Source: Candidatus Omnitrophota bacterium (GTDB lineage Bacteria > Omnitrophota > Gorgyraeia > Gygaellales > Profunditerraquicolaceae). From it: a DNA stretch of 64,000 nt. Location: NCBI GenBank assembly GCA_043809145.1, contig JAZDED010000012.1, positions 3,994-67,993 of the forward strand. Reading direction: 5' to 3'. A program made the translations under genes and the position numbers. The notes below the pieces were generated by a model. That model saw only the letters and a list, made by a program, of their open reading frames with translations. It was not told where the DNA came from and searched no databases. Each line of letters opens with the position of its first letter. The first letter of the stretch is position 1. This document shows positions 3,271 to 31,491 of the stretch, piece by piece.

Positions 3271-4242
3271 TCATTTTGTTCTTGTGTAAAAGGTTATAAT
3301 TCCGCTCTTTTTCCTCGCTGAGATATTGGCTGGTAGGTCTACTATGGAGTTTTCTGGGCGGCTTAGAATTAGTTCCTGGAGTTCTTTAATATGCCCATAG
3401 GTTATTTGACGGGTCTGGCCTTTTAATTTGGAGATATTTAGGCGCAGGATCATCATTTGTATTGCCGGATGAAGTTTAATAAACTTTTTGCACGGTATTT
3501 TCTTATCGAACCGTGAGAATTCTTTTTCAGCCTTCTGTTTAATAAAATCGTAGTCTTGACCTATAGTGGCAGCCATATTGCTGAGCAAGCCCTTTATGTT
3601 GGGATTGTATTCTTTTTCTAGGAGAGGTATTAAATGGGAGCGGATTTTATTCCTAAAAAAAACCTCTTCTTTATTAGTGCTATCCTGACAGGGTGAAATC
3701 CCTCTTCTTTTTAAGAAGGTTTCGATTTCTCTACGTCTTGTTTCTAGTAAAGGGCGGATAATTTCAAGTCCTTGGATTTTTCTTAGCTGTGTCATGGCAG
3801 CCAACCCGTAGAGTCCGCTACCTCGTAGCATGCGCATTAAAACAGTTTCTGCCTGATCATCCAGATTGTGTCCAAGTGCAATTTTGTTTGTTTTATTTTT
3901 TTTGCAGGTTTTAAGAAATATCTTAAGGCGTATATTGCGCGCTAACTCTTCCAGGGAGCCCCGGGTTTTTATTAATTTTAAATTGACTTCTTCTACTGTA
4001 AAGGGTAAATTTAATTTGCGGGCTAATTCAACTACGAATTTACGATCCTTGAAGGAATCAGTCCGTAGTTTATGGTCTACATGAAGCATATGCAGGCTTA
4101 AGTTGAATTCTCTACTTAGGCTATTCAATATGTAAATCAAGGCTACGGAATCTGGCCCTCCGGATACCCCGACGATTACTCTCTCGCCTTTCTGCAATAG
4201 TCGATATTTTTTTATAACTGCTCTTACGTTATCTATTAGCAT
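3271..4242 (-). CDS. tilS: tRNA(Ile)-lysidine synthase
   Basis: 323 aa with PP-loop motif VGVSGGPDS and TilS-like length and architecture. Confidence 0.9.
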   Translation of the reverse strand: MLIDNVRAVIKKYRLLQKGERVIVGVSGGPDSVALIYILNSLSREFNLSLHMLHVDHKLRTDSFKDRKFVVELARKLNLPFTVEEVNLKLIKTRGSLEELARNIRLKIFLKTCKKNKTNKIALGHNLDDQAETVLMRMLRGSGLYGLAAMTQLRKIQGLEIIRPLLETRRREIETFLKRRGISPCQDSTNKEEVFFRNKIRSHLIPLLEKEYNPNIKGLLSNMAATIGQDYDFIKQKAEKEFSRFDKKIPCKKFIKLHPAIQMMILRLNISKLKGQTRQITYGHIKELQELILSRPENSIVDLPANISARKKSGIITFYTRTK

Positions 4243-4267
4243 CAGGTAATTTCTTAAACCGAAAGGA

Positions 4268-4639
4268 TTAATGAATAGCCTTTTTGATTTTGGCCAGTAT
4301 ATCTTCGAAGCTGCAAGGTTTCATAATATAGTCGCAGGCTCCTAAATTATCTATTCTGGTTTCTATACCGTTTGGAAGGAGTTCTTTTCCAGTAATAAAA
4401 ATAATTGGTATGGGACAGGAAGATTTATTCTGTTTTAGCGCTTGAGCAACCGAGTAGCCATCAAGGTCAGACATGGCAATGTCTAGCAATAACAGGTCAG
4501 GTTGGCAGGTTTTTACCATTTCGATAACCTCTTTTCCGGATGCTGCAGTTTTAACCTCGTAATCATTGGCTTTCAGCCTTTTTTCTAATATGACCAGGGC
4601 ATCTAATTCATCATCTGCAATCAAAATCATTTTTTTCAT
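4268..4639 (-). CDS. single-domain response regulator (receiver only, CheY-like)
   Basis: 123 aa with acidic pocket DDE, phospho-acceptor context LLLDIAMSD, and conserved T and K (FITG, MKP). There is no output domain. Confidence 0.85.
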   Translation of the reverse strand: MKKMILIADDELDALVILEKRLKANDYEVKTAASGKEVIEMVKTCQPDLLLLDIAMSDLDGYSVAQALKQNKSSCPIPIIFITGKELLPNGIETRIDNLGACDYIMKPCSFEDILAKIKKAIH

Positions 4640-4663
4640 TGAGCACCCGCTTTTTTTAGCGAA

Positions 4664-4684
4664 ACTTCGACAAAGTCGAAGCTA
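4664..4684. repeat. small palindromic element acttcgac-aaa-gtcgaagcta (copy 1), flanked by 10-nt direct repeats gagcacccgc
   Basis: 7-bp stem with a 3-nt loop. A near-identical copy is at 53481..53501. gagcacccgc occurs at 4641..4650 and 4685..4694. Confidence 0.6.
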
Positions 4685-4775
4685 GAGCACCCGCCCTCCA
4701 TCGCTTTACACCTCGCCTAAACTTTAAGGCTCAGTGCAAAATTTAGTAATAATTAAAAAGCTATGCTAAATTTTG

Positions 4776-4849
4776 TGACGGAGAGTGGATTTAAACCACC
4801 GACCAAGCGGGTATGAGCCGCGTGCTCTATCAGGCTGAGCTACTCCGCC
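4776..4849 (-). tRNA. tRNA with CAT anticodon (elongator Met most likely; Ile2/lysidine not excluded)
   Basis: The reverse complement folds as a 74-nt cloverleaf: GGCGGAG TA GCTC AGCCTGATA GAGC A CGCGG CTCATAC CCGCT TGGTC GGTGG TTTAAAT CCACT CTCCGTC A. The G1-C72 pair argues against an initiator. The D-loop lacks GG and the T-loop is TTT, a possible covarying 19-56 pair. Confidence 0.85.
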
Positions 4850-4858
4850 AAATAAATT

Positions 4859-5272
4859 TTACCAACCGAATATTCTTTTTCCAAAAAGAACTATGCCTAT
4901 ACCCACGGCATTCAGGCTCGCTACGAGCACTACTGCCGCTGAAATATCTTTGATTAATTTTATCAGAGTGTGGTATTTATGAGTTGTCATGTCCAACATT
5001 AACTCTATTGCCGTATTGAAAATTTCAGCCATAAAAACCAGGGTAATGGTTATGCATAAAGCAACTAGCTCTATTCCTTTAAGTTTAAAGTAAATGCCTA
5101 CACTAAAGAAGAATAGGCCAGCCAAAAAGATAATGCGCATGTTACGGTGGTAGAGTATAAGGTACCCTATACCTGCTACTGCCAGCTTTAAGCTTCCTAT
5201 AAATCCTCTGAATTTAAATAAATTTTTAAATATACTATTTATCTGGACCATCTTAACCTTTGAGTATGACAA
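4859..5272 (-). CDS. dgkA: diacylglycerol kinase / undecaprenol kinase family membrane protein
   Basis: 137 aa with three predicted TM helices and the EIFNTAIE motif typical of the prokaryotic DAGK family. The true start may be an internal Met. Confidence 0.75.
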   Translation of the reverse strand: MSYSKVKMVQINSIFKNLFKFRGFIGSLKLAVAGIGYLILYHRNMRIIFLAGLFFFSVGIYFKLKGIELVALCITITLVFMAEIFNTAIELMLDMTTHKYHTLIKLIKDISAAVVLVASLNAVGIGIVLFGKRIFGW

Positions 5273-5558
5273 AGAGCATTAATAGAATAATCAGGAATGA
5301 GAGCAGATAAAAATCATTAAAGTAGAAAAAATCGGCCAATCTCTCTTTTAATGAATAGTGCGTCTGATGCTGCTCCCTGTTTTGGTGGTGGAGGCTCTTT
5401 TTGTATTCATCCACTTGATCCTTTTTAAATCTTAAATATACTCCTCCGACTTTATAGGCGGGTATTGAGCTGTTTTGCGCCAGGTCAAGCACCTCTTTTT
5501 CAGATACGCCTAATAAGAAAGAAACATCCCTTACGGTTAAAAGTTTTTCTTCAGACAT
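5253..5558 (-). CDS. membrane-anchored helix-turn-helix protein (excisionase/MerR-like HTH + C-terminal TM helix)
   Basis: 101 aa. The N-terminal sequence LLTVRDVSFLLGVSEKEVLDLAQNSSIPAYKVGGVYLRFKKDQVDEY looks like an HTH_17-type motif. The C-terminal sequence FYLLSFLIILLMLFVIL is hydrophobic. Confidence 0.65.
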   Translation of the reverse strand: MSEEKLLTVRDVSFLLGVSEKEVLDLAQNSSIPAYKVGGVYLRFKKDQVDEYKKSLHHQNREQHQTHYSLKERLADFFYFNDFYLLSFLIILLMLFVILKG

Positions 5559-5582
5559 AAATATTAGTTGTCTTTCTAAAGA

Positions 5583-6086
5583 TTATTTATTGATTTTACC
5601 GGAGGCAATCCATGAATCTATGGATTTTCTTTCAAACTTCCAGCCATTTTGCTCTTTTGTAGCCGGAATCTTGCCGGAATTTGCCCATTCAACAATAGAG
5701 TCGTTATCTACTTCCAAGTAGCGGGCTAGTTCCTCGGTGTTCATGAAATCCGCCAACATAGAGCATTTGCCTTCAAAGAGCGCTCCTTCGGCAACGCTTA
5801 ATCTAGCCGGGCTTATATCGCCTTCTACTATGGCCGTATGCTGTAGGACAAGTCCGTGTTTGGCGATTATCCTGCCTTTAACTTTTCCGGCAATTACAAT
5901 CTGATCTCCGGTGATATTGGCATTAACTTGGGCGCTGGAACCTATAGTTAGGTTGCCTTTAGTTTCCAATGTGCCTTCGAATTTACCGTTGATACGTAGA
6001 TTAACTGGATCGCGAAAAGTCAACGTTCCTTGCATGGCTGCGTCTACATCCAAGATTTTTTCTTCCGTCTTTTTCTTAAATGCCAT
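5583..6086 (-). CDS. bactofilin-domain protein fused to a C-terminal excisionase/MerR-like HTH
   Basis: 167 aa. It has the bactofilin beta-helix repeat pattern (GKFEGTLETKGNLTIGSSAQVNANITGDQIVIAGKVKGRIIAKHGLVLQHTAIVEGDISPARLSVAEGALFEGKCSM). This is followed by TEELARYLEVDNDSIVEWANSGKIPATKEQNGWKFERKSIDSWI. Confidence 0.7.
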   Translation of the reverse strand: MAFKKKTEEKILDVDAAMQGTLTFRDPVNLRINGKFEGTLETKGNLTIGSSAQVNANITGDQIVIAGKVKGRIIAKHGLVLQHTAIVEGDISPARLSVAEGALFEGKCSMLADFMNTEELARYLEVDNDSIVEWANSGKIPATKEQNGWKFERKSIDSWIASGKINK

Positions 6087-6544
6087 TAGCCCTCCCCTCT
6101 TGTCTTAAGCCCATCTTTAATAAGAGTCAGAGATTCTACTTTTCTCAATACTAAGAGAACGGCAAGGGTTAGAATAGAAGTATAGACAGCCGCATTATAA
6201 AAACCGCTCCCCGTAGCTAGGCCGATTCCGGCAACAACCCAGAGGCTGGCAGCTGTGGTTAGTCCTCTGATGCCGTCTTTCTCGCGCATGATTGTTCCCG
6301 CGCCTAAAAAACCAATACCGGTAATTACTCCAGCCGCTATACGGCTGGGGTCTAAGCTAGCTATGTCCTTATATATATCAAAAACATACATGGATGTCAA
6401 CATGATTAGGCAGGAACCCAAGCTGACCAGGATATGTGTGCGTAGGCCTGCGGTCCTGCGGTGAATTTGTCTCTCCAATCCGATGAGGCCGCTCAAGACT
6501 ATTGAGAGCGTTAGACGAATAATAATTTGTTTATCGGATAGCAT
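6086..6544 (-). CDS. MgtC/SapB family membrane protein
   Basis: 152 aa with 4-5 TM segments and the motif GLERQIHRRTAGLRTHILV characteristic of the MgtC family. Confidence 0.8.
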   Translation of the reverse strand: MLSDKQIIIRLTLSIVLSGLIGLERQIHRRTAGLRTHILVSLGSCLIMLTSMYVFDIYKDIASLDPSRIAAGVITGIGFLGAGTIMREKDGIRGLTTAASLWVVAGIGLATGSGFYNAAVYTSILTLAVLLVLRKVESLTLIKDGLKTRGEG

Positions 6545-6560
6545 TTATTCCTCCTCTTGT

Positions 6561-7550
6561 TTAGTCTAAAGCCAGGTTTAAAGAAAAAGACGATCTGTGG
6601 CCTTTTTTAAAAATTTGATAACCGAATCCCGCAACCATGGCGGCATTGTCTGTACATAATTGTTTGGGAGGAAAATAAAGATTTAGGCCTGCTAGCGCCC
6701 GGGATTCTCTCTGGAACCTATCTCGTAAACGCATGTTTGCGGCAACCCCTCCGGATACGGCCAGGTGTTTTACTTTATATTTTCTGCAAGCAGAGAGAGT
6801 TTTAACGACAAGACTATCAATAACTGATTCCTGGAATGACCAGCAAATCTGGTTAATCTTTTGTTTATTTTTTAGGCCGTGTTTTTTTACGTAATATAAA
6901 ACCGCTGTTTTGATTCCGCTGAAACTAAAATCCAAAGGCTTTTTAGGGTTAAGGCAAGAAAATCTAATATGGGAATTTGAGCCTGCTTGAGCAGCTCTGC
7001 GTTCAATCACAGGGCCTCCGGGGTAACCCAATCCAAGAATCTTAGCCACTTTATCAAATGTTTCTCCACAGGCATCATCATTGGTTGTACCTAGGGTTTG
7101 AATTTTATCAAAATCATGAAGAAGGTATATTATTGTATGCCCTCCTGAAACTACTAGTGCTATAAGAGGCATTCGCGGCTTGGGCAAATTTAGAAAACAG
7201 GCATAGATGTGGCTGTAGAGATGATTAACTCCTACTAAAGGTATTTTCTTGGCCAGGCTTATGGCTTTGGCAAATTCTAGTCCGACAATTAGCGAACCGA
7301 TAAGTCCAGGCCCACAGGTAACTGAAATTAGGCCTATCTTGTCCAGCGTTAACTTGGCTTGGCTTAAGGCCACACCGGCTATTTGTGTAATTGCCTCCAT
7401 CTGTTTACGAGAGGCTATTTCCGGGACAATTCCACCATATTTTTTATGCCAAAAGAGGCTTGAACTGACGGCGTTAGACACGATGATTTTTGCATCTTTT
7501 ACCACCGCTGCCGCAGTTTCATCACAAGAAGTTTCAATGCCGAGTGTATA
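6561..7550 (-). CDS. tsaD: tRNA N6-adenosine threonylcarbamoyltransferase TsaD
   Basis: Kae1/TsaD family (GIETSCDETAAAV, HxxxH region NHLYSHIY). I place the start at the internal Met (MYTLGIETSCDE) just after the upstream stop. The ORF track extends it to 7589. Confidence 0.9.
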   Translation of the reverse strand, partial: YTLGIETSCDETAAAVVKDAKIIVSNAVSSSLFWHKKYGGIVPEIASRKQMEAITQIAGVALSQAKLTLDKIGLISVTCGPGLIGSLIVGLEFAKAISLAKKIPLVGVNHLYSHIYACFLNLPKPRMPLIALVVSGGHTIIYLLHDFDKIQTLGTTNDDACGETFDKVAKILGLGYPGGPVIERRAAQAGSNSHIRFSCLNPKKPLDFSFSGIKTAVLYYVKKHGLKNKQKINQICWSFQESVIDSLVVKTLSACRKYKVKHLAVSGGVAANMRLRDRFQRESRALAGLNLYFPPKQLCTDNAAMVAGFGYQIFKKGHRSSFSLNLALD

Positions 7551-7554
7551 CATG

Positions 7555-8340
7555 TTATTTGGCCAAATCCGATACAAAGACAAATTCAAAGCCTTCTTTT
7601 TGAGCTTCAGGGATTAATTCCGCTAAGGTGCTTAGAGTTATCCTGCGGTCATGTCCTATGCCGATTGCGTTTCCGTAAAGGGATGCCTTTTGTTTTAATT
7701 TATGGAACTGTTGCTTGATATATGGCGCCTCATTGAGATTATCGAGAAAAATATCCCTTTTGGCAAAGGCTATACCGGTTTCAACTGCTATTTTTTTGCT
7801 GATAGAATGCGCAGATACTAGGCTGTCTAAAAAATATAGCCCTCTTTTTTTTAGTTCCCGCAAGACTATTCCCATTATCCTGGGATCTTCGGTTGCCAGC
7901 GACCCCATGTGGTTGGATACGCCTTTTAACTCAGGAATATTGTCCAGGTTGGCCCCTAATATAGCAATTATCTGATTTTCGTCCATGGTAGTAAGAATGG
8001 TGTTTTTCTCCAGACGGAACTTTTCATGCGGCTCAAGCGGCAGATGCAGTATCGTTTCCTTGCCGAACTTATGGATATCCCTAATCAGATTAATGGAATA
8101 GTTTAAGTTAGGCAGGATAGCGCAGGTTATTGGATAATTCATGCGCGCAAGAATATTAAGGTTGTTAAGATTATAACCCCAATCATCAATGACTATTGCA
8201 ATCATGGGGGCAGCTTTCTCGATAGGCTTGGTTTGCTTAATTTTCTTGCCAGCCAATAGCTTGAATATGACAATACCTTGGATAATAATAACTGCCGATA
8301 ATGCCCATATGACTAGTTTGTGGATCTTAAGTTTCTTCAT
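7555..8340 (-). CDS. divergent polysaccharide deacetylase family protein (YibQ-like)
   Basis: 261 aa with an N-terminal TM anchor and a DDWGYN motif. It sits next to ctp, the usual yibQ neighbourhood. Confidence 0.7.
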   Translation of the reverse strand: MKKLKIHKLVIWALSAVIIIQGIVIFKLLAGKKIKQTKPIEKAAPMIAIVIDDWGYNLNNLNILARMNYPITCAILPNLNYSINLIRDIHKFGKETILHLPLEPHEKFRLEKNTILTTMDENQIIAILGANLDNIPELKGVSNHMGSLATEDPRIMGIVLRELKKRGLYFLDSLVSAHSISKKIAVETGIAFAKRDIFLDNLNEAPYIKQQFHKLKQKASLYGNAIGIGHDRRITLSTLAELIPEAQKEGFEFVFVSDLAK

Positions 8341-9620
8341 TTAGGCAAAGTATTCTTGACACGGCTGTAAAATAAGATTCCTTTTAAAACATCTACTGCC
8401 CGGACAAGCTGGTTATCTGTTTTGTATTTATTATCTTCAGCTGGTTTCTTTACTGCGGTGTCGATTTTTTCAAAAACATCTTCTGTTTCCTCAATTGCAC
8501 CCTTATTATTCTGAACAAGCTCAATCTTTCCTTCCTCGACTATGATATCGGGGATTATGCCTTTTTCGTGTATCTGCCTGCCTAACGGAGTGTAATATTT
8601 ACTGGTTGTTAATCTTAGGGCTGAGCCGTCTCCTAGCGGAATTATGGTTTGCACCGAGCCCTTGCCAAATGATTTTACTCCGATGATAATTGCCTTTTTA
8701 TGGTCCTGAAGCGAGCCTGCCACAATTTCGCTTCCTGATGCCGAGCCTTCGTTAATCAAAATGGCAATTGGAATATTTAGCCAGGGTTTGGAATATTCGG
8801 CCTTAAATTGAAAATCTTGTTTTCCCTGCCGGCCTTTGGTGTAAACAATTATTTTGCCTTTTTCTACGAATCTCTCTGTTACCTTTACTGCGACATCCAA
8901 GAGTCCCCCGGGATTATTACGAAGGTCTAGTATTAAGCCTTTTAGTCCTTCCTTGCTGAGTTTTTTTAATACCTGATCTATATCAATGGCGGTATGTTCC
9001 GAAAACTCCACTAGCCTTATATATCCGATCCCGTCTTCCAGAATTTTGGCTTCTTTGATATCCTTGATTTTGATTATGTCGCGGATGATTTTAAAGTCTA
9101 TGATCTTCTTCTCGGACTCCCTTAAAATAGTGACATTAACTGCTTCCGAAGGCTTACCGCGCAGTCTCTTTACAGCTTCGGTTAGAGTCATATCGCGGGT
9201 TATTTCGTTATTTATTTTTATAATACGGTCATTTGCTTTTAAGCCGGCTTTCCAGGCGGGGGTATCTTCGATTGGTGTGACTACGGTTAAGAGACCATCG
9301 GATATGGTAATTTCTATCCCAATCCCGCCGAATTTTCCTTCGGTAGAAACCTTCAATTCATTGTATGTTTCCGGGTCCATAAACTGGCTGTGCGCGTCTA
9401 GAGAGCCGAGCATCCCTTTTAAAGCGCCGTAGATAAGATCCTGGGATTTAACTTCATCTATATAGTCGGTTTGAATTAATGCCAGGGCGTCAGAAAAAAG
9501 GCCGACCTGCCTGTAAAGTTCGCTTTTTTTCTTGTCCATAGCGCAGAAGGCGTTATATGAAAAAAAGACTGCTCCTGCGGCGGCAATAAATATTATGGCG
9601 GATATTTTCATTTTACGCAT
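8337..9620 (-). CDS. ctpA: carboxy-terminal processing peptidase (S41 family, PDZ domain)
   Basis: 427 aa with a signal/anchor sequence and a PDZ region. The catalytic Ser context is NEGSASGSEI and the Lys context is KSFGKGSVQT. Confidence 0.9.
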   Translation of the reverse strand: MRKMKISAIIFIAAAGAVFFSYNAFCAMDKKKSELYRQVGLFSDALALIQTDYIDEVKSQDLIYGALKGMLGSLDAHSQFMDPETYNELKVSTEGKFGGIGIEITISDGLLTVVTPIEDTPAWKAGLKANDRIIKINNEITRDMTLTEAVKRLRGKPSEAVNVTILRESEKKIIDFKIIRDIIKIKDIKEAKILEDGIGYIRLVEFSEHTAIDIDQVLKKLSKEGLKGLILDLRNNPGGLLDVAVKVTERFVEKGKIIVYTKGRQGKQDFQFKAEYSKPWLNIPIAILINEGSASGSEIVAGSLQDHKKAIIIGVKSFGKGSVQTIIPLGDGSALRLTTSKYYTPLGRQIHEKGIIPDIIVEEGKIELVQNNKGAIEETEDVFEKIDTAVKKPAEDNKYKTDNQLVRAVDVLKGILFYSRVKNTLPK

Positions 9621-11047
9621 TAACTTATCCTCCTCTTGAGTATTTCTTGAACAACTTTAGGGTTAGCTTTACCCTTTGATTTTTTCATTACTTGGCCTAC
9701 CATGAACATAAGGGCATTAATCTTACCGTTTTTATAATCAGCAGCGGATTTAGGATTTTCGCGGATTACCTCATCGGCGTATAATTCCAGACTTTGGGTA
9801 TCGGAGACTTGGGAGAGGTTCTTCTCCGCCATAATCTTGTCCGCATCTATTCCCGTATCGATCATGACTGGAAGAACTAACTTGGCGTTAAGGTTGGAAA
9901 TAATTTCTTTATCTATTAATTCTAATAATTTTACCAGGTTTTTAGGAGTTAACTTAAGTTCGAAAATAGAGCAGCGCCTGATATTGGCTTCTGAGAGTAA
10001 AGGACCGATTAACCAGTTGGCCATATTTTTCTTATCAATATTATTATAAAGTTTCAGGCAATCTTCGGAAAATTCAGCGTCTTTTCTGGAACTGGTGATG
10101 ATTGCGGCATCATAAGCTGTTAATTTGTACTCTTGGATAAAACGCGCTGCTTTTTGTTCCGGTAGTTCCGGAAGCTCGGCCTTAGCCGCATTTATTTTTT
10201 CCCGGGTGATAGACAATGGCGGTAGGTCTGGTTCCGGGAAGTATCGGTAATCCCTGGCTTCTTCTTTAGCGCGCATGGAGTATGTTTTTTGTTCTTTTTC
10301 GTTCCAGAGGCGGGTTTCCTGGATCACTAATTCATTGTTTTCTAATAAAGCGCTTTGCCTCTTAACTTCAAATTCCAAAGCCTCCTTGACCGCTTTAAAT
10401 GAATTCAAATTCTTTAATTCCGTTTTTATGCCCAACTCCTTCTCTTTTGTTTTCTTGAGTGAGATATTGGCATCGCATCTTAAGGAACCCTTTTCCATAT
10501 CACAGTCTGATACATCCAGGTAGGCGATAATATTCTTTAACTTGGTTAGGTAATTATAAGCTTCTATCGGAGAATTGATATCCGGGTCGCTTACAATTTC
10601 TAAGAGAGCAACTCCGGCGCGGTTGTAATCTACGAGGCTGGATTCATCTTCGTGGATAAGTTTTCCGGCATCCTCCTCCAAATGAATCCTGCGTATATTA
10701 ATGCGTTTTACCGTATCTTTAATTTTAATATCCAGAAAACCCTCTTTACAGATCGGCAGGTCATACTGCGATATCTGAAAATTTTTTGGGAGGTCCGGAT
10801 AATAGTAATGTTTACGGTCAAACTTGGTGAATTCTTGTATGGAGCAATCTAGCGCAACTCCTACCCTGATTGCATAGTCGAGCGCCGTTTTGTTTAATAC
10901 CGGTAATGAGCCGGGAAGCCCCAGGCATACCGGACAGACTTGGGAATTAGGGCTATTGCCGAATTCCGTGGGGCATCCGCAAAAAGCTTTGGTTTTTGTT
11001 TTAAGTTGAAGGTGAACCTCTAATCCGATTATGGTCTGGTATTTCAT
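9620..11047 (-). CDS. gatB: Asp/Glu-tRNA(Asn/Gln) amidotransferase subunit B
   Basis: The GatB N-terminus MKYQTIIGLEVHLQL is present. I use this Met as the start. The ORF-track start at 11095 would overlap gatA by 40 nt. Confidence 0.93.
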   Translation of the reverse strand: MKYQTIIGLEVHLQLKTKTKAFCGCPTEFGNSPNSQVCPVCLGLPGSLPVLNKTALDYAIRVGVALDCSIQEFTKFDRKHYYYPDLPKNFQISQYDLPICKEGFLDIKIKDTVKRINIRRIHLEEDAGKLIHEDESSLVDYNRAGVALLEIVSDPDINSPIEAYNYLTKLKNIIAYLDVSDCDMEKGSLRCDANISLKKTKEKELGIKTELKNLNSFKAVKEALEFEVKRQSALLENNELVIQETRLWNEKEQKTYSMRAKEEARDYRYFPEPDLPPLSITREKINAAKAELPELPEQKAARFIQEYKLTAYDAAIITSSRKDAEFSEDCLKLYNNIDKKNMANWLIGPLLSEANIRRCSIFELKLTPKNLVKLLELIDKEIISNLNAKLVLPVMIDTGIDADKIMAEKNLSQVSDTQSLELYADEVIRENPKSAADYKNGKINALMFMVGQVMKKSKGKANPKVVQEILKRRIS

Positions 11048-11055
11048 ATAGTTAA

Positions 11056-12516
11056 TTAAGAAATAGCAAAGGTATTCGGTTTCTGTAAATGCCACTCTGC
11101 GCTTTGTTCATAGGTATAGGCAGCCCTAAAAATTATCTCTTCGGCAAATGGTTTAGCCAGGATCTGTAGTCCTACTGGAAGCCCCTGTTGTGTAAAACCA
11201 CAAGGGACTGAAATTCCCGGTATTCCGGCTAAGTTGGCCGAAATAGTATATACATCGGAAAGGTACATCTTTAATGGGTCTTGGGATTTTTCTCCAATTT
11301 TGAATGCCGGCGTAGGTGAGGTTGGGGTTAGAATACAATCAAAATCCTTAAAGATTTTGTCAAAGTCATTCTTTATTAGTGTTCTTACTTTTAATGCGCG
11401 TAAATAATAAGCGTCATAATAGCCGTGGGATAATGCAAATGTTCCCAACATTATTCTTCTCTTGGCTTCTTCACCGAAGCCTTGGCCTCTTGCGCGCATA
11501 AACATTTCGATAATGCTTTGTCTCTTCTCCTGATCTGGCCTAAGGCCGTATTGCACTCCGTCGAATCTGGAGAGGTTGGAGCTTGCTTCTGCTGTGGCTA
11601 CAATGTAGTAGACAGGGATAGCGTACTTGGTATGCGGTAGGGAGACTTCTTGAAACTTCGCTCCCAATTCTTTAAGTTTTTTAATGGCTATATGAACTGT
11701 ATTTTCAACTTCCGTATCTATTCCCTGGCTATGAAAATATTCTTTAGGCAATGCTATTCTCAATCCCTTGACATCGGATATGAGAGATTTTGTATAATCT
11801 GGAACCGGATGTTCTACTGATGTCGCGTCCATGGGGTCATGGCCGGATATTATATTCATTATTAAAGCCGCATCCTGGACATCGCGGGTAATCGGACCAA
11901 TCTGGTCAAGACTTGAGGCAAAGGCAATCAGACCGTAGCGCGATACTCTTCCATAAGTAGGCTTAAACCCTACCACTCCGCAAAAACTGGCTGGCTGACG
12001 TATTGAGCCTCCTGTATCTGAGCCCAAGGCCATTATAGCTTGTCCGCTGGCTACAGCTGCGGCTGAACCACCTGAAGACCCCCCAGGTACTCTTTGTAAA
12101 TCCCAGGGGTTATGCGAAGGGCCAAAACAGGAATTTTCAGTTGAAGAACCAAAGGCAAATTCATCCATATTGGTTTTTATACTCATTATTGCAGCGCCGG
12201 CGCTTTTTAGTTTACTTATTACTGTAGCGTCGTAAGGAGGAAGAAAGCCTTTGAGTATATTGGAACAGCATTCGGTGAGCGCGTCCTTAGTGCATATATT
12301 ATCTTTTATGGCAATAGGTATACCTTTAAGCAGGCTGTTTGTGTTGTCTTGGGTTAATTTCACGCAAGGCGTGTCTCCTACCCTGACAAAAGCTTTGATC
12401 GATTTATGAGACTGCAGGATTCGTTCGGTTAATTGCTCGGCAATTTCTTCAGGCTGCAATTTATTATCACAGGCTTTCTTTAATAATTCATGGCATGTTT
12501 GGTTCTGAATTGGCAT
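11056..12516 (-). CDS. gatA: Glu-tRNA(Gln) amidotransferase subunit A
   Basis: 486 aa with the amidase signature [12 protein letters not shown] and gatC-gatA-gatB gene order. Confidence 0.95.
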
Positions 12517-12518
12517 GT

Positions 12519-12803
12519 TTAATCGATTACCTTGGGTACCTTGAAGAAGCCTTCCTTTTTTTGCGGAGCGTTGGCCAGGGTTTTGGCGATAGGAAGAGTG
12601 GGTTTTAACTCATCTTGCCTGAGGATATTAGATGCAGGCAAGATATGGCTTGTAGGGTTTACCTGGTTTATATCGGCGCTTTTTAGCTGGTCAATAAAAT
12701 CAATGATTGAATGCAGTTGCCCAGAGAGTAATTCCATCTCCTTCTCATCAAGGTTAATACGCGCCAGTTTAGCTATATATGCGACTTGTTCTTTATCAAG
12801 CAT
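12519..12803 (-). CDS. gatC: Asp/Glu-tRNA amidotransferase subunit C
   Basis: Small protein [22 protein letters not shown]... immediately upstream of gatA. The ORF-track N-terminal extension to 12878 is probably not translated. Confidence 0.85.
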
Positions 12804-12883
12804 TTTCTTATTTTGATTGAAATTATAGAGAATTAGTTTAACATTCTTTACCTTAAATGTCAAAATATATGTGGACAAAATCC

Positions 12884-12912
12884 TTGAAATATGTAAAATA
12901 ACTTAGTAAATT
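12884..12912 (+). promoter_or_regulatory. candidate promoter (TTGAAA-17-TAAATT) for the plus-strand gene
   Basis: The plus strand reads tccTTGAAAtatgtaaaataacttagTAAATTtaacagcttaatGAGGAGaagATG. Confidence 0.35.
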
Positions 12913-12933
12913 TAACAGCTTAATGAGGAGAAG

Positions 12934-15900
12934 ATGAAAAAACAAAAAGGGTATATAATCCCAAAATATTATCTGAATGAGAATGGTGCTTTTGTAATCG
13001 AGAATTATAATACCGCTAAGCCTTTGGCAAGTTTTTTCCCGGGAATCTCCGGAGAATACGGTATACCTATGTGGGTTTTTTACGTTAACCGGGGCCAGGG
13101 TGTAGTAAGTTTCGGCATTAAGGACCGGGACAGCTCGATTATGGAATTTCTTCCGGCAAATAAGGCCTGGGAGTCTGTGTCGCTATCGGGTTTCCGCACT
13201 TTTATTAAAGTAATGGGTAGTAATAAAAGCCTTTTTTATGAACCTTTTCATAACGGGTTCTCAAGTATCGGCTATAAGCTTACCAACCGCATGTCCATCA
13301 CTTCTTATGACCTGAGGATTGAAGAAGATAATTTATCTCTGGGGCTTAGGACCGAGGTTGATTATTTTAATATCCTTCGGATAATTATGCGGGCTTGGTG
13401 AGGATTTTGACCTTAAGGAATTTAAGCAACAAGATTAAGCGTATTCAGCTGCTTGACGGCCTGCCTAAGATTGTCCCTTATGGAGTAAATTATTTCTTCT
13501 TAAAAAGGCTCAGTCGTACTATTGAAGCCTGGATGACGGTAGAGAATCTGGAAAAGGGAGTTCCCTTTTATAAGCTGGGCGTAGACCCGGTTGACCGGCC
13601 ACAGGTAGTACATCTTAAGGAAGGCAATTTCTACCTTCCTTTCAGTTACGAAAAGGGCAGTTGCCGGATTATTAAACCTATTGTTGACCCCGAGGCTATT
13701 TTTGGCCCGGTATTGGATTTTTCTTACCCGTATTATTTTCTTAAAGATAAAGTTTTTAAATACCCCAAGGTTCAACTTGCCAAAAATAAGACTCCTTGCG
13801 GAGTAACTTTGATCAATGCGCAAATACCTCCTCTATCCGAAATAAAGCTCTATTCAATTATCGGAAATATGCGTTCGCTGCACTTGCTTAATGACGCGGT
13901 TCCGCGGATTGCCAAAAAAGAATACCTGGAGCATAAGAGAAAAGAAAATATAGGGATAATTGAGGCATTGCAGAATGATATTGATACCAAAAGCTCCTGT
14001 CGAGAGTTTGATTTATATTCACGGCAGACCTATCTGGATAATATTATGCGTGGGGGTTATCCGGTTATTTTTAAGTCTAAACTGCACAAAACCGTTTTTT
14101 ATTTATATTCCCGTAAACACGGGGACTTGGAGCGTGATTATAATAAATTCCAGATCCAGCCGACATATTTCTCTCAAGGTAACGGTAATTACCGCGATAT
14201 AAATCAAAACCGCAGGTGTGATGTCTGGTTTAATCCCGAAGTCCAGGACGACAATATCATTACTTTTTTTAACCTTATTCAAACAGATGGTTTCAATCCC
14301 CTGGTAGTAAAAGGGGTGTCTTTTATTTTGACTAAACCTGATGAGTTTAAGCCCGTGTTGGAGAGCTTGGTAAAGGCTAAAGTGACGCCTGAGATTCTGG
14401 AATTCTTTGAAAAGCCATTCACTCCGGGAAGCGTAATCTTGTTTTTGGAAGAAAAAAAGATTACGCTAAAGGTAAAATCCGAAGAGTTCATTAATGTATT
14501 ATTGTCGCATTGCGATAAGATTCAGGAGGCATACCATAAGGAGGGTTATTGGACAGACCACTGGGTATATAACCTGGATTTATTGGAGAACTATCTGGCC
14601 ATATACCCGGAGAAGTCGGAAGAAATTTTATTCAATAAACGGGTATTTACCTTTTTTGACAATGACCAGGTGGTTAAGCCGCGCTCTTGCAAATATATCC
14701 TGCTGGATCAAAAGCCCAAGCAGCTTCATGCCCTCTATAGCGATGAAGAAAAAAAAGACATTATCTTTAAGAGAAAAATGCAGATCCGTTTAAGCAGAAA
14801 GGATTACGGAAGGGGTGAAATTTATTATACTAGTTTAATCAACAAGCTTATGTGCCTGGTGGTAAATAAGTCTGCATCTTTAGATCCTCAAGGCTCAGGT
14901 ATTGAGATGGAGTCAGACAAGCCTAACTGGTTTGATGCTTTAAACGGCCTGCCTGCCCTTTTTGGATCTTCTACTTGTGAAACCTTTGAGCTTAAGAGGT
15001 TGGGCAAATTTATTAAAGAAAAACTTCAGATGTCAGGAATTAAAAATATAGCATTGAGCGAAGAAATACATGATTTTCTTGACAGCCTGGATAAAATAAT
15101 AAAGGAGTATCTGGAGCTCGGCGCGGTTAACAGGGATTATATTTATTGGGATAAGAGTTCAACCTTAAAGGAAAATTACCGTTTAAAAAACCGCTTTGGC
15201 CTTAGCGGTAAAGAAGTTGATGTCAGCTCCTCTAGTTTAATTTCTTTTCTTAACAATCTCCTTATAAAGATAGATATTGGCCTGAATAAGGCCTTGGTTA
15301 AAAAGGATAATATTTATACCGCCTATTTCTATTATGAGGTTTTGGAATATGATCAGATTAAAGATGGCTTTATTATGCCGCGGAAGTTTACTCAAAAAAG
15401 GCTTCCCTTCTTCCTGGAATCTCAAGTGCATGCTTTAAGATTGGTTAATGACATAGGCCAGGCTCGGAGATTGTATCGTGCAGTCAGGAATAGTCAGTTA
15501 TATGATAAGAAATTAGGGATGTACAAGGTTACTGCTCCGCTTGATGCTATGCCTGAAGAAATTGGCAGGTGCCGCGCTTTTACTCCCGGGTGGCTGGAGA
15601 ATGAATCAATCTGGCTTCATATGGAATATAAGTATCTCCTGGAGATTATAAAATGCGGGCTCTACGAAGAATTTTATGCGGATTTTAAAGGTATGCTTAT
15701 ACCTTTTCAGGATCCAGCGCGTTACGGCAGGAGTATTTTAGAAAACTCTTCTTTTCTGGTTAGCAGCGCCTTTCCCGACAAGCGCCTGCATGGAACCGGT
15801 TTTGTTAGCCGTCTATCAGGCTCGACCGCCGAATTTTTGAATATCTGGCTTTTGATGAATATAGGCAAGGAGCCATTCTTTCTAAATGACAAAAAGCAAT

Positions 15901-16169
15901 TATGCCTAAAATTTGATCCGATATTACCGAAATGGCTTTTTAATAAGGATAAGTCCTACAGTTTTAATTTCTTAAGTAAAATCATGGTTACTTACCATAA
16001 TCCTCGTATGAAAAACACATTTGGCCCTGACTGCGTCCGGATAAGAAGGATATCTTTTAAGGATCAGTTGGGAAATCCTGTAGAATTGAGCTCTTCTTTA
16101 ATACCTGCCCCTTATGCGCAGCAGATCCGCTCTCGTTTAATCCAAAGGATTGATATTTACCTTAAATAA
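12934..16169 (+). pseudogene. large glycoside-hydrolase/phosphorylase-like protein, split by a frameshift (ORFs 12934..13401 and 13395..16169)
   Basis: The two ORFs overlap and read as one protein of about 1075 aa if one frame change is made between 13371 and 13398. The second frame is open from 13371 (YPSDNYAGLVRILTL...) and has no SD or ATG of its own. Motifs include FFPGISGEYGIPMWVFYVNRGQ, NYRDINQNRR, YWTDHWVYNLDL and PGWLENESIWLHMEYKYLLE. These remind me of proteins usually auto-annotated as cellobiose phosphorylase, but the family assignment is unverified. Confidence 0.6.
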
Positions 16170-16179
16170 TAAAGTTAAA

Positions 16180-18894
16180 TTAGAATTTGCGGTGGTAATA
16201 AAGGCGGATAATATGCTGGATATCCAGCACTGAAAGTGAGCCGCCAAAAGGGTCAAAGGTTACTGCTCCTATTGGGGTATAGCCTGATTCTCCGTACTGT
16301 AAAATCAATTCATCGTCACTGGTTCTATGGTATCTTAATTCTGCGAAGAAATTATGATGTCCGGCTGGCGTGGTAATACCTTGTTGCAGGCGTTCTAGAT
16401 CCTTCCAGCGCGAATAAACGTATTTCAAATAAAGGCCTAATTTCTCAGTAGGTAAATAACCGATTTCTACTCCGGCATGATTAATGTTGTCCGATGTAGG
16501 GCCGGCGCTTTCGAATTCGTTACGCGTATAATCAAAATATACCTCCATTTTATCGATAGGATTAATTCTTAATCCTGCCTTAAAGATATCGTAAAACGGA
16601 TACGGGGCATTGGGAAAAAGCCCCTGGCTGTAAAGCCAGCTGTTCATTTCGCGGTAGCGCATAGAATTTTCCCAGTAAAGATAAGCACGATTTGCGCTGT
16701 TTAATATGCCTCGGGGATAATTGTCATAAGCTAAAGTGTAATCATTAGTGTGTTCCCATACCCCGTTGAGGGCAAGCCAATCATAAAAAGCATATTCTAA
16801 TCCTAAGGAACCTGTTTTAAGCGATGGGTCGTCGGCGTCTCTAATCTGGTCATTAATTAATAACCTACCGGAAACAGCGTCGTATAAGAATGGGTCCTCC
16901 CCAGCGGTTGTTTTAGGCATATATTGGTAAAGGGCTAGACCCTTGGCAGTCAGTTTATCGGTTACCTTTAAAGTTATTTCATCGCGCGCGACATTCTCCA
17001 CAAACTTACCGTTGGCTAGGTGCACATTACGCACATCAAAGAGGTTTTCTAACCTTTCCGGCCATAGGGTTTCTATTCTAAAACCAAAGGCATCCCTTCC
17101 GGAATCAATCCCATCTCCAATGCCAAAAGGTTTAATGTCATTCCAACTCATGGCTGCAGAATAAATTCCGGCATAATAATATTCAAAAGGCTTGCGAAAG
17201 GTAAGATGTCTCGACCACTGGCTGTCTTTACGCGTATTCTTATAGTTGCTTAATGCCGGAGTAAAGCCTTCATCCATGTGCGCGGCATAAAATCGGCTCT
17301 TTACAATCATGGTTTCGCCTTTATCGGCCTTTAAGTCGTCGTAGCTTGAGTCGATAATTTCCCTGGAGGGATATCGATTGACTAAAGAGAAGTAAAATGA
17401 ATTACCGCGCCACTTTCTTCTATAGCCAGGGCTAGTAATGTCACTTTGGGTTTGTGAAGTTGCTGCTTCTAAAGATATTTTGGTTCCTTCTTTGACTTCC
17501 AGGCTCAAATCAGTCCCTAAGACATTATTGCGCGAATCTATCTTGGAGTTATCATCTAAGTTAAACCCGGCGCGCATGCTGTGAGTAAACCCGAGAATGG
17601 ATTTATCTCCAATGCGCTGCTTAAACCTGGAGGCAGTGATGACATTATCGACTTCAGAATAGTCCTGCCATAATCCTTTAGGAGCAGCTAATGTGCTTTT
17701 TAGTTCCGTGCCATCCTGTGGATTAAATTCAAAAGAAAAGCCCCTGAGCGCGGTTAGATATGTTGCGTCGCTGTCTTTGGTTAGAGCAGCCAGTTGATCA
17801 TCCCAGGCTCCGGGTGTAAAATCTACTGGTGGTCCGACATTAGTATTGAGTATTCCTCCCCTCCATTTATAAAGCCATGGGCTGGCTTCCCACCAGGCAT
17901 GGTTATTGGTCAGGCGCAACGGGTCATCGCTGGTAAGGGCTTGGGTTTGATAGGCCATCGGAAAAAATCTGACCTTTGCAACATCATTTTTATAATCTAC
18001 CCAAAGTTCCCTTAAGGGTTGAAAATCTCTTTGTATTTTGGTTTCTGGTATATTAAAGGTATCTGAAGGCCAGTAAGCGCCATATGTAGTGAAAGCGTCT
18101 GTGCCGTATTTTCCAACTTTAGTTTCAGGCAGGCTAAATGAATTTCCTAAACTCTGAGTATAGACTGTTTCCGGGATAGTGTAACCGGTGTTCGACCAGT
18201 ATTTTAGTTCGATTTCCGCATAGTCTCCCCATCCGCTGGTTACAGTTGTCTTTGGGCCTTTACCGGTAAAGCTCCAGGGGTCAATGGTTATATCCGTATG
18301 AAATCCAAGTCCTTCTTGATTATCAGTATCGACATTGACCCTTAAACGGTCAAAGATTCTGGGGTCGTAAGTATTATAGCGGTTATTATAAGCCGATTTA
18401 TCTGTTAGTGTACGCCAGTTTTCTTCGTTAAGATCAAAATTTGACCTTTTCCAGATTGTGTCCCTAGTATCAATACCCAGGCCTAATTGCGCTTCTCCCT
18501 TAATCTTTATTCCTGAATGTGGTTTATCTTGGATTGGTGTAGAATATTTGACTGGGCTTGCAGTAATTGGTTGTGGCAGGAGTCCGGCAATGGTTTTTTC
18601 CATAACATCATCGCGGTTTGTTTGAGAAGTCATTGCGGATGCTGACACAATTGGTTTGGGTGCACTGCGGTTGGCCAGTGTCTTTAGATACTTGTTGGCC
18701 AATTCATTTCTCGGGTCAATGAGCAGGACTTTCCTGAATTCCATAGCAGCATCTTCGTAGCGTCCGCTCCGATAAAATGATTCACCTACTTCCAAAAGAA
18801 AATCGGCAGCCTGAGATGCGGCCAGGCAGGTCTTAATGGTAAAAGTTAGGCTGAATAGTACAATTAAAACTATCGTTAATATTTTTTTAATCAT
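16180..18894 (-). CDS. large outer-membrane beta-barrel-type protein with N-terminal TPR-like module
   Basis: 904 aa with signal peptide (..TIKTCLAAS). A TPR-like helix pair (GESFYRSGRYEDAAMEFRKVLLIDPRNELANKYL) and a Pro/Ser linker follow. The remaining ~750 aa is rich in aromatic/Gly/Asp alternating strands and ends ...LYYHRKF, a C-terminal Phe typical of OMPs. Confidence 0.7.
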   Translation of the reverse strand: MIKKILTIVLIVLFSLTFTIKTCLAASQAADFLLEVGESFYRSGRYEDAAMEFRKVLLIDPRNELANKYLKTLANRSAPKPIVSASAMTSQTNRDDVMEKTIAGLLPQPITASPVKYSTPIQDKPHSGIKIKGEAQLGLGIDTRDTIWKRSNFDLNEENWRTLTDKSAYNNRYNTYDPRIFDRLRVNVDTDNQEGLGFHTDITIDPWSFTGKGPKTTVTSGWGDYAEIELKYWSNTGYTIPETVYTQSLGNSFSLPETKVGKYGTDAFTTYGAYWPSDTFNIPETKIQRDFQPLRELWVDYKNDVAKVRFFPMAYQTQALTSDDPLRLTNNHAWWEASPWLYKWRGGILNTNVGPPVDFTPGAWDDQLAALTKDSDATYLTALRGFSFEFNPQDGTELKSTLAAPKGLWQDYSEVDNVITASRFKQRIGDKSILGFTHSMRAGFNLDDNSKIDSRNNVLGTDLSLEVKEGTKISLEAATSQTQSDITSPGYRRKWRGNSFYFSLVNRYPSREIIDSSYDDLKADKGETMIVKSRFYAAHMDEGFTPALSNYKNTRKDSQWSRHLTFRKPFEYYYAGIYSAAMSWNDIKPFGIGDGIDSGRDAFGFRIETLWPERLENLFDVRNVHLANGKFVENVARDEITLKVTDKLTAKGLALYQYMPKTTAGEDPFLYDAVSGRLLINDQIRDADDPSLKTGSLGLEYAFYDWLALNGVWEHTNDYTLAYDNYPRGILNSANRAYLYWENSMRYREMNSWLYSQGLFPNAPYPFYDIFKAGLRINPIDKMEVYFDYTRNEFESAGPTSDNINHAGVEIGYLPTEKLGLYLKYVYSRWKDLERLQQGITTPAGHHNFFAELRYHRTSDDELILQYGESGYTPIGAVTFDPFGGSLSVLDIQHIIRLYYHRKF

Positions 18895-30498: not shown

Positions 30499-30606
30499 AT
30501 CTGTTCAAATACTAAGCATACGAATATTTATCTCCGATACACATACGTTAGTATTGTACCTCCGGAGTAAATATATCTAGACAAAATCGAAGCATACGAA
30601 TATTTA
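30489..30606. repeat. two ~42-44-nt direct repeats (period 74 nt) abutting the 3' end of rnpB
   Basis: The two copies are CGGAGTAAATATCTGTTCAAATACTAAGCATACGAATATTTA (30489..30530) and CGGAGTAAATATATCTAGACAAAATCGAAGCATACGAATATTTA (30563..30606). Confidence 0.8.
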
Positions 30607-30607
30607 C

Positions 30608-31090
30608 GCCAGACAGAATAAGCCGGGTTTTGTCTTATGGCGAATTCGCGCCTTCAGTAGCCATTTCTCTAAGACCCGAAGTTACCTTCGGGTTCAAGCA
30701 GCCCACCCGCCCATACATCCTTCAGTAGAATAAACAAAGGACTAAAAGGGGATATTCCTTAGACTAACCAATTGAAGATTAGTTGTACGGGCCTATTTGG
30801 CCTTGCTCCGCGTAGAGATTGCTGCGTTTCACCCCCGCACCTTTTTTAAATATTAAATTATACCAGGTTGCTTATAAAAATAGGATTACTTGATTCAAAA
30901 AAAGGTGCGGGACTCGTCTCTGTAGCTCTCCTGCCAAAAAAAATTAGCAGGCCTGTTTACCCGGAGGTAACAAGAATCCTCAGACCGCCTTCCTAAAAAG
31001 GCAATCTGGACGGGAGTTACCCGCTACGCTTACCCCTGGAGCCCGGACTTTCCTCCCCGCGTCTTGCGGGGCAGCTACTTTCTGTCTGGC
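30608..31090 (-). ncRNA. rnpB: RNase P RNA (bacterial type A-like)
   Basis: The minus strand carries the hallmark motifs GAGGAAAGTCCGGGCTCC, GGAGCAAGGCCAAATAGG, GGCTGCTTGA, TAGAGAAATGGCT and ACAAAACCCGGCTTAT. P1 pairs GCCAGACAGAA with TTCTGTCTGGC. It is about 480 nt long because of a 78-nt hairpin insertion. Confidence 0.92.
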
Positions 31091-31489: not shown

Positions 31490-31491
31490 TT

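Follow-up and report, generated by a model that had tools for sequence, protein, structure and literature searches.

What is the role of a bactofilin that ends in a folded helix-turn-helix (HTH) domain, and of the small membrane-anchored HTH protein encoded immediately behind it? This question is raised by two adjacent genes in a stretch of 64,000 nucleotides (nt) from a metagenome-assembled genome (MAG) of a Candidatus Omnitrophota bacterium (GCA_043809145.1, contig JAZDED010000012.1), the whole of which is called the window in the following. The first open reading frame (ORF), at 5583..6086 on the minus strand, encodes a protein of 167 amino acids (aa), called here the fusion; the second, at 5253..5558 on the same strand, encodes a protein of 101 aa, called here the partner; and an intergenic spacer of 24 nt (5559..5582) lies between them. 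A preliminary description, made from the sequence alone, had regarded the two as a bactofilin-HTH fusion and a paralogous membrane-anchored HTH protein, and had suggested a two-part tether linking DNA, or a partner protein, to a cytoskeletal polymer and to the membrane. On the basis of profile searches, predicted structures and a survey of related loci, we conclude that the fusion belongs to the bactofilins, that its architecture is new and conserved, and that its partner is obligate.

Domain composition and predicted folds

The N-terminal part of the fusion (residues 11–108; 5763..6056) matches the Pfam model Bactofilin (PF04519, DUF583) over positions 2–97 of its 98 (E = 1.3e-24; 86.7 bits against a cut-off of 27.9), and the C-terminal part (residues 114–163; 5598..5747) matches HTH_17 (PF12728; E = 2.1e-11; 44.3 bits against a cut-off of 27). 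In the model of AlphaFold2 (AF2), for which the mean predicted local distance difference test (pLDDT) score is 80.8, the strands of a beta-helix occupy residues 11–105 with pLDDT of 87–96, and Foldseek matches this part to the bactofilins BacA (2n3d) of Caulobacter crescentus and TtBac (6rib and 6ria) of Thermus thermophilus with target template modelling (TM) scores of 0.72–0.77. The preliminary assignment of both halves is thus supported by profiles above the Pfam cut-offs and by the folds. The fusion is 100% identical to an NCBI entry entitled 'polymer-forming cytoskeletal protein [Candidatus Omnitrophota bacterium]', and the names found in databases for these proteins ('polymer-forming cytoskeletal protein', 'excisionase family DNA binding protein' and 'CcmA') are automatic ones only.

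Residue F104 of the beta-helix, at the C-terminal polymerisation interface, was aligned by phmmer opposite F130 of BacA and F105 of TtBac, and relatives of the fusion have F or L there; replacement by Arg of either of the two known residues blocks polymerisation (PMC12448750; title of 6ria). The first six residues, MAFKKK (6069..6086), are a candidate membrane-targeting sequence (MTS), being similar to the global bactofilin consensus MFSKKKK, which was reported in a study where Omnitrophota lie outside the five phyla analysed separately (PMC12448750). M1 and F3 do not vary among 22 relatives, in which conservation of A2, K4 and K5 reaches at least 90%; residues 1–9 are disordered in the AF2 model (pLDDT below 50). 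Filaments of bactofilins lack polarity and use the MTS to associate with the membrane, and the fusion too would likely polymerise and bind the membrane directly, because it retains F104 and has an N-terminus like MFSKKKK.

The fusion shares the DUF583 beta-helix and the interface Phe with the canonical bactofilins of C. crescentus and T. thermophilus, and its short basic-hydrophobic N-terminal peptide resembles the MTS, but these bactofilins end in tails that are usually short, disordered and poorly conserved, whereas the fusion ends in a folded, almost invariant winged helix on a connector of five residues (109–113; 5748..5762). In and around this connector C108, M110, L111 and F114 are invariant in the clade close to the window sequence, and in distant relatives the connector is up to 13 residues longer.

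The partner also begins with an HTH_17 domain (residues 6–55; 5394..5543; 33.8 bits against the same cut-off). Its mean Kyte-Doolittle hydropathy over a 19-residue segment is 2.54 at residues 83–101, and the AF2 model has a C-terminal helix at residues 82–99 (5262..5315) with pLDDT of about 90. We predict the partner to be a tail-anchored membrane protein, because this C-terminal segment is hydrophobic and only two residues lie beyond the AF2 helix; the N-terminal HTH and C-terminal transmembrane helix of the preliminary description are both recovered. A strong C-terminal hydrophobic segment followed by 0–4 residues is present in 151 of 156 partners. Adjoining this anchor, a juxtamembrane helix (residues 70–84; 5307..5351) contains the aromatic-acidic motif DFFYFNDFY, in which D76, F77, Y79, N81, D82, F83 and Y84 are invariant in 20 relatives; the motif is found in 78 of 80 GTDB partners and is retained in distant ones (loci L081 and L083). 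The invariant Asp and Asn residues suggest that the motif may make a specific contact and not merely position the chain at the interface.

Conservation of the gene pair

The fusion family has 2591 matches among clusters at 90% identity; both Pfam domains are present in each of the best 120, which are 70–77% identical. Relatives were found in at least 485 GTDB species-representative genomes, and an exhaustive search of 50%-identity representatives gave about 25 clusters of full-length fusions, down to about 32% identity. All relatives named by taxon belong to Omnitrophota or to the 'PVC group'. For the partner family there are 1031 clusters at 90% identity, those bearing a name being Omnitrophota.

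We compared gene order in 165 loci, namely the best 80 GTDB loci, 4 loci holding three distant fusions, 80 metagenome loci and the window; the metagenome loci form a clade about 54% identical to the window fusion and came from a scan built from 5 distant sequences. The fusion was found in all 165, and the partner lies directly downstream in all of the best 80 GTDB loci and in every one of the 156 loci with enough sequence; the nine loci without a partner call have at most 405 nt downstream before the contig ends. The typical order in the best 80 GTDB loci is CtpA, YibQ-like deacetylase, TsaD, MgtC, fusion and partner. MgtC is upstream in 77 of these 80, and is directly upstream in 126 of the 143 loci having room for it (72/76 GTDB, 4/4 distant and 50/63 metagenome). 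The gene dgkA, which follows the pair in the window, does so in only 4 of 80 relatives, and a LarB/AIRC-like gene is found there instead in 71 of 76. Median spacers in the 80 relatives are 6 nt between MgtC and the fusion and 15 nt between the fusion and the partner. The recurrence of the fusion and of its pairing is far beyond chance, and the conserved unit is the fusion plus the partner, with MgtC as a frequent third member and dgkA as an incidental neighbour; the placement of the pair between MgtC and dgkA in the preliminary description is therefore typical on its MgtC side only. Median identities to the window proteins are about 70% for the fusion, about 70% for MgtC, 62% for CtpA, 58% for the partner, 56% for TsaD and 50% for YibQ. 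Linker lengths of the fusion and the partner correlate (Spearman 0.54, 151 pairs), but the correlation splits by clade and is phylogenetically confounded, and we have not taken it as evidence of contact.

The pair is retained in lineages that are only 45–55% identical. In one locus (L166), whose fusion is 41% identical, SPOR-domain and TPR/PDZ genes stand in place of MgtC and the other genes of the block, and an HTH_17 tail-anchored gene still lies downstream of the fusion, 11 nt away. The most divergent fusion (L165, 32% identical) has the N-terminus MKFFSQKKR, and the next downstream ORF, inside which the contig ends, is not an HTH gene. Three genes upstream of this fusion (L165, 1–4567), a 465-aa ParA/MinD-type ATPase with a C-terminal AMPK1_CBM domain is encoded, and a gene for Volactin, which is actin-like, lies further upstream; the neighbourhood is cytoskeleton- and positioning-themed. 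In another divergent fusion (L168, 4001–5399) the HTH is basic (about +3 by a hand count) and its recognition helix reads MVRKWAREG; a bitopic coiled-coil membrane protein is encoded downstream, and an integrase about 3.2 kb upstream. From this single case, fusions without a partner may retain a helix of DNA-binding type.

Two related architectures were also seen. One is a bactofilin (P0277; L167, 768–1529) that is 45% identical in the beta-helix and has a C-terminal PilZ domain replacing the HTH; it adjoins a hybrid histidine kinase and a sigma-54 response regulator, and has no HTH partner. In this related bactofilin clade the C-terminus seems able to take up different adaptor domains. The other consists of tandem HTH_17 repeats with basic recognition helices, three in P0329 and seven in P0378, which are covalent arrays of the same fold.

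Several loci with the Omnitrophota six-gene synteny and about 70% identity (L002, L008, L009, L027, L053 and others) come from records titled 'uncultured Planctomycetales', 'Candidatus Margulisiibacteriota' or 'Candidatus Pacebacteria', and these titles probably reflect placeholder or wrong taxonomy or mis-binning. The length of MgtC also varies: it has 152 aa in the window, where it consists of the membrane domain only, 144 aa in L081, and 220 aa in L083 (4271–4933) and L084 (4304–4966), so that lineages of the phylum have either lost or gained a cytoplasmic extension at the C-terminus.

The two winged helices

In the AF2 models the fusion domain consists of helices at 117–124, 128–137 and 153–162 with strands at 143–145 and 148–151, and the partner domain of helices at 9–16, 20–28 and 46–59 with strands at 34–37 and 41–45. 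Foldseek matches the fusion domain to BldC with a root-mean-square deviation (rmsd) of 1.5 Å over 47 residues, and also to RacA, mycobacteriophage Xis, RdfS and the centromere-binding domain of pSK1 Par; the partner domain matches BldC and Xis with an rmsd of 1.0 Å (TM 0.80–0.85), and also RacA. The BldC, Xis and RdfS matches of both domains span 1.0–2.2 Å, the best of them lying at 1.0–1.5 Å over 47–48 residues with the same alpha1-alpha2-wing-alpha3 topology. BldC, RacA, Xis, RdfS and pSK1 Par are architectural DNA binders acting as multimers, and winged helices of BldC, Xis and RdfS type oligomerise head-to-tail. Neither protein has the layout of classical MerR-family regulators with a long coiled coil or an effector domain: the fusion stops four residues past the winged helix, and in the partner the winged helix is followed by a linker and the transmembrane helix. 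We no longer call the two HTHs paralogues, because BLASTP between them finds no significant similarity and profile–profile comparison alone links them (hhalign probability 86%, identity 19%); they share a fold family and are not close paralogues.

We mapped the fusion onto BldC with a phmmer alignment anchored by W31/W134, G35/G138 and K36/K139 (BldC/fusion), in combination with the published contacts (PMC5859096). Arg30 of BldC reads bases, its mutation R30A abolishes DNA binding, and the base contacts of RacA use the equivalent Arg (PMC5859096); the fusion has E133 at this position. It has D129 in place of Lys26 (base contact), N136 in place of Lys33 (phosphate contact) and F151 in place of Arg48 (wing). 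Resemblance is kept at W134 for Trp31 and S130 for Thr27, both phosphate contacts, and at K150 for Arg47 of the wing; K139 stands opposite Lys36, which is not among the BldC contacts used here, a mention of Lys36 in that paper being possibly mis-numbered.

The same picture was obtained when residues and charges were surveyed in 164 fusions and 156 partners of the close and distant clades. The Arg30 equivalent is Glu or Asp in 162 of 164 fusions and the Arg22 equivalent in all 164, while the Lys33 equivalent is mostly Asn, the Lys26 equivalent N, S or D, and the Arg48 equivalent F. The mean net charge of the fusion winged helix is −2.0 to −2.4 in the 164 sequences and never reaches +2; in an independent set of 254 sequences the mean is −2.56, and the isoelectric point of the domain is 4.9. 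Over aligned spans, the net charge is +6 for BldC residues 14–51, −2 for the fusion and +1 for the partner. The BldC head patch F21, V23 and W31 corresponds to L124, V126 and W134 of the fusion, all of which are invariant, as is E125; these invariant equivalents would fit a head-to-tail protein contact.

The partner winged helix has a mean net charge of +0.85 in the close clade and +0.12 in the distant one. All 156 partners have R43 in the wing, and K/R is conserved at positions 36 and 45. In the close clade its recognition helix is acidic (D25, E22 and E28), with D, N or E at the Arg30 equivalent, and in the distant clade it is variable and often basic, with R or K at the Arg30 equivalent in 28 of 75 and K or R at the Thr29 equivalent in 42 of 75.

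Neither the fusion nor the close-clade partner, then, has the basic DNA-contacting recognition helix and wing of BldC (K26, R30, K33, R47 and R48). Canonical DNA reading by the fusion winged helix is unlikely, because the domain is acidic and has Glu or Asp at the Arg30 equivalent. DNA binding by the partner is possible, because R43 is invariant, K/R is conserved at positions 36 and 45, and in the distant clade many of the recognition helices are basic. The view that both proteins carry nucleic-acid-binding modules is not supported for the fusion and stays a possibility for the near-neutral partner.

Proposed role of the pair and alternative explanations

We tentatively prefer the explanation that the two genes form a conserved module in which a membrane-bound polymer docks the tail-anchored partner, with DNA as possible cargo, while judging the chance that it is correct to be somewhat below even. 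We infer in it the polymerisation, the membrane binding and the contact between the two proteins, and DNA as the cargo is its least certain element. The bactofilin part of the fusion would polymerise on the cytoplasmic face of the membrane, and the folded, acidic and almost invariant winged helix, taking the place of the usual floppy C-terminal tail, would be the docking site for the partner; the area near the C-terminal polymerisation interface, where clients of bactofilins, usually membrane proteins, are bound, may add to this site. The winged helices would contact each other heterotypically and head-to-tail, as those of BldC, Xis and RdfS stack, possibly with help from the juxtamembrane motif, and the outcome would be a regularly spaced array of partner molecules fixed at the membrane. 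Any DNA would be held mainly via the partner winged helix, which would make the array a polymer-organised tether of the nucleoid to the membrane in cells of about 0.2 µm.

A docking role for the fusion winged helix is proposed because the domain is acidic in all 164 sequences, because the Arg30 equivalent is almost always Glu or Asp, and because the head-patch equivalents and E125 are invariant. A precedent is the recruitment of the HTH protein BacR to the membrane by bactofilins of Bacillus subtilis. The pair appears to be functionally coupled because adjacency is complete in the loci with room, because it is kept in distant lineages and in L166, and because the bactofilin-PilZ relative has no partner. 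The two-part tether of the preliminary description survives as a conserved pairing of a polymer scaffold with a membrane-anchored winged helix; its division into a polymer part and a membrane part is blurred, because the bactofilin probably binds the membrane itself via MAFKKK. The data agree with the alternative cargo named there, a partner protein, no less well than with DNA.

Several points weigh against the docking module. The partner winged helix is weakly basic (+0.1 to +0.9) and has Asp at the Arg30 equivalent in the close clade, so that its own DNA binding is uncertain. A bactofilin with its own membrane peptide has no obvious need of a transmembrane anchor. The whole gatCAB-ctpA-yibQ-tsaD-mgtC block is conserved, and adjacency can therefore reflect synteny. 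Directly downstream of the two most divergent fusions examined (L165 and L168), no HTH partner is encoded. The sequence alignment used to map residues onto BldC is weak (E = 0.46), although the structural match at 1.0–1.5 Å supports the mapping.

A second explanation, which we regard as unlikely, is that both winged helices bind DNA; the filament would then present a periodic row of DNA-binding domains, to which the partner adds a membrane-anchored one, and the whole would be a one-polypeptide analogue of RacA-DivIVA or BacNOP-PadC-ParB that fastens or segregates the chromosome. It agrees with the HTH_17 assignment and with the multimeric architectural DNA binding of all the closest structures, as well as with the resemblance of W134, S130, K139 and K150 to BldC W31, T27, K36 and R47 (phosphate and wing positions, the role of K36 being doubtful). 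The tandem HTH_17 proteins show that covalent arrays of this fold exist, and the ParA-type ATPase and Volactin genes near the most divergent fusion point in the same direction. The acidity of the fusion domain, compared with +6 for the same span of BldC, is difficult to reconcile with it, as are the Glu or Asp at the Arg30 equivalent and the Asn that is usual at the Lys33 equivalent, given the effect of R30A on BldC.

To about the same low degree we consider an adaptor system without DNA, in which both winged helices are protein–protein modules, as in CbpM, and the partner would do no more than anchor or nucleate; the scaffold would organise envelope or membrane proteins, for example MgtC, which is co-transcribed, or factors of division and of the cell wall. 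Members of the fold family overwhelmingly bind DNA, the cytoplasmic part of the partner consists of the winged helix and a short motif only, so that its output would be anchoring alone, and the pair persists in loci without MgtC; these three points speak against such an adaptor. In its favour, both proteins have an acidic recognition helix in the close clade, CbpM (3ucs), a MerR-like J-domain binder, is among the structural matches, and membrane-protein clients are the rule for bactofilins. MgtC is translationally coupled in addition to being the usual upstream gene, and the upstream neighbours are otherwise envelope-related (CtpA and the YibQ-like deacetylase; SPOR in L166).

We think it quite improbable that the two HTHs are transcription factors whose access to DNA is gated by polymerisation and membrane sequestration and which tune the expression of target genes. 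A precedent is BacR of B. subtilis, which is co-operonic with BacE and BacF, is held by them at the membrane and is freed to the nucleoid when they are depleted or under vancomycin stress. Permanently membrane-tethered regulators such as ToxR and CadC also exist. The pair in the window has no promoter region of its own, as judged from the median MgtC–fusion gap of 6 nt, the long co-directional block and the only terminator-like site, which lies inside mgtC; moreover, a covalent fusion and a transmembrane anchor leave no obvious mechanism of release, neither protein has similarity to DUF4004 by Pfam (E up to 1), and the recognition helix is acidic.

Very unlikely, in our judgement, is the explanation that the two genes work independently and are neighbours only through the synteny of streamlined genomes. 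The gatCAB-ctpA-yibQ-tsaD-mgtC-fusion-partner block is indeed conserved and its functions are mostly unrelated, but the pair is intact in L166 where all other neighbours are different, and its adjacency (156/156) exceeds that of MgtC (126/143) and of dgkA (4/80). Both proteins, furthermore, share the rare combination of a winged helix with a membrane or polymer attachment, and the bactofilin-PilZ relative lacks a partner.

A mobile-element excisionase (recombination directionality factor) or a component of MADS defence, suggested by NCBIfam TIGR01764 'excise' (29.3 bits for the fusion and 38.9 for the partner, above the cut-off of 28.8), by the JGI label 'excisionase family DNA binding protein', by NF047737 MAD1 as the best-scoring NCBIfam model and by weak PADLOC mad1 matches, was rejected and has next to no probability, because the MAD1 scores (45.7 and 39.9 bits against a cut-off of 80; PADLOC 14.6 and 20.3 bits) are below threshold and because the context effectively refutes it, with housekeeping genes, no integrase or defence genes nearby, uniform GC content and a fixed chromosomal position in more than 150 loci.

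Comparison with known systems

Among known systems, BacR (YhbD, DUF4004) with BacE and BacF of B. subtilis likewise links an HTH protein genetically to bactofilins, which bind BacR, keep it at the membrane and weaken its binding to DNA (PMC13649987). BacR is, however, a separate soluble protein of the DUF4004 family that is encoded upstream and regulates its own operon, whereas the HTH of the Omnitrophota fusion is of HTH_17 type and covalently joined, and the pair has a second, transmembrane-anchored HTH protein encoded downstream; with this architecture the Omnitrophota proteins do not belong with BacR and DUF4004.

In Myxococcus xanthus, the BacNOP-PadC-ParAB system ties a bactofilin scaffold to the chromosome segregation machinery (PMC5703909), and the C-terminal tail of BacP is the binding site for the adaptor PadC. 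This link runs via PadC, ParB and ParA, the bactofilin has no domain of DNA-binding type, and the type of HTH differs. The RacA-DivIVA system of B. subtilis ties a MerR-like winged helix to a membrane-associated polar scaffold for chromosome anchoring, and RacA (5i44) is among our best structural matches; its scaffold is DivIVA, the two are separate proteins, and RacA keeps the Arg equivalent to Arg30, where the fusion has Glu or Asp.

BldC, Xis and RdfS, which stack into head-to-tail filaments, are free and basic and polymerise on DNA, whereas the Omnitrophota fusion would owe its polymerisation to the bactofilin and has other residues at key DNA contacts. CbpM, the modulator of CbpA, shows that a MerR-like fold can serve protein–protein binding; its match to the partner is weak and long-range (rmsd about 13 Å for the whole chain), with no sequence relationship, transmembrane helix or polymer. 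In the literature searched we found no description of the bactofilin-HTH fusion or of the partner, in agreement with the preliminary statement that the pair could not be assigned to any described system, and two papers on Omnitrophota genomes are silent on bactofilins and the cytoskeleton.

Gene neighbourhood and other observations in the window

The window represents a core housekeeping part of the chromosome, encoding FtsH, TilS, GatCAB, CtpA, TsaD, LepA, ScpB, RuvA/C, RpoD, DnaG and GroEL, and probably also a ribosomal-protein cluster. Nearly all its genes are on the minus strand, and the guanine-plus-cytosine (GC) content is uniform at about 41%, giving no compositional signal of an island. 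No integrase was found in this housekeeping neighbourhood and no defence genes near the fusion and the partner.

Upstream of the fusion lies the gene of an MgtC/SapB-family membrane protein (6086..6544, minus strand; Pfam MgtC, 144.6 bits), whose stop codon shares one base with the fusion start (TAATG at 6086); this overlap and the 24-nt gap behind the fusion had been given correctly. Downstream lies dgkA, for prokaryotic diacylglycerol kinase (4859..5251, minus strand; DAGK_prokar, 91.3 bits). The 20-nt overlap of dgkA with the partner, as described before, needs a TTG start at 5272; an ATG at 5251 (MVQINS...), one base past the TAA of the partner, is the more plausible start. A tRNA-Met gene (CAU; 4775–4849) follows directly on the same strand and appears to close the co-directional run. 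Between it and tilS, a stand-alone receiver-domain protein of 123 aa is encoded (4268–4639, minus strand; Response_reg, 83.7 bits), in a position kept in 1 of 80 relatives. Promoter and terminator scans over 4000–13200 were uninformative, the sole minus-strand terminator-like site lying inside the mgtC coding region, and Rfam found only RNase P and tRNAs over the window, with no match in the locus of the pair.

Elsewhere in the window, Pfam gave no match (E up to 1e-3) for three ORFs: 12934–13401 (155 aa) and 13395–16169 (924 aa), which are rare plus-strand exceptions, and 16180–18894 on the minus strand (904 aa). The bacterial RNase P RNA (30605–31089, minus strand; Rfam, 172.6 bits) overlaps about 110 nt of the 3′ end of an RNase H/RVT_3-like ORF (30980–31522, minus strand). 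In a minus-strand ORF of 1018 aa (33027–36083), the sole Pfam match is a C-terminal OmpA domain, and the first 900 or so residues have none.

Significance

Bactofilins are widespread, but their connection to cargo is known in few species, and links to DNA are known only via separate proteins, PadC/ParB in Myxococcus and BacR in Bacillus. With a phylum-wide winged helix on the filament subunit and a partner encoded beside it, the bactofilin–HTH connection looks general and not species-specific. Omnitrophota have no pure-culture isolates, but the two proteins are small (167 and 101 aa) and can be tested in vitro and in Escherichia coli. We hold it possible, though improbable, that the pair is a minimal self-contained device for chromosome–membrane attachment or partition in Omnitrophota cells of about 0.2 µm, the polymer being coupled to DNA via both winged helices with no ParB- or PadC-type adaptors; if true, this would be the first cytoskeletal filament with a built-in domain of DNA-binding type. 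The module would represent either a new nucleoid–membrane tether for very small cells or a DNA-binding fold that has been re-used as a docking module on a cytoskeletal polymer.

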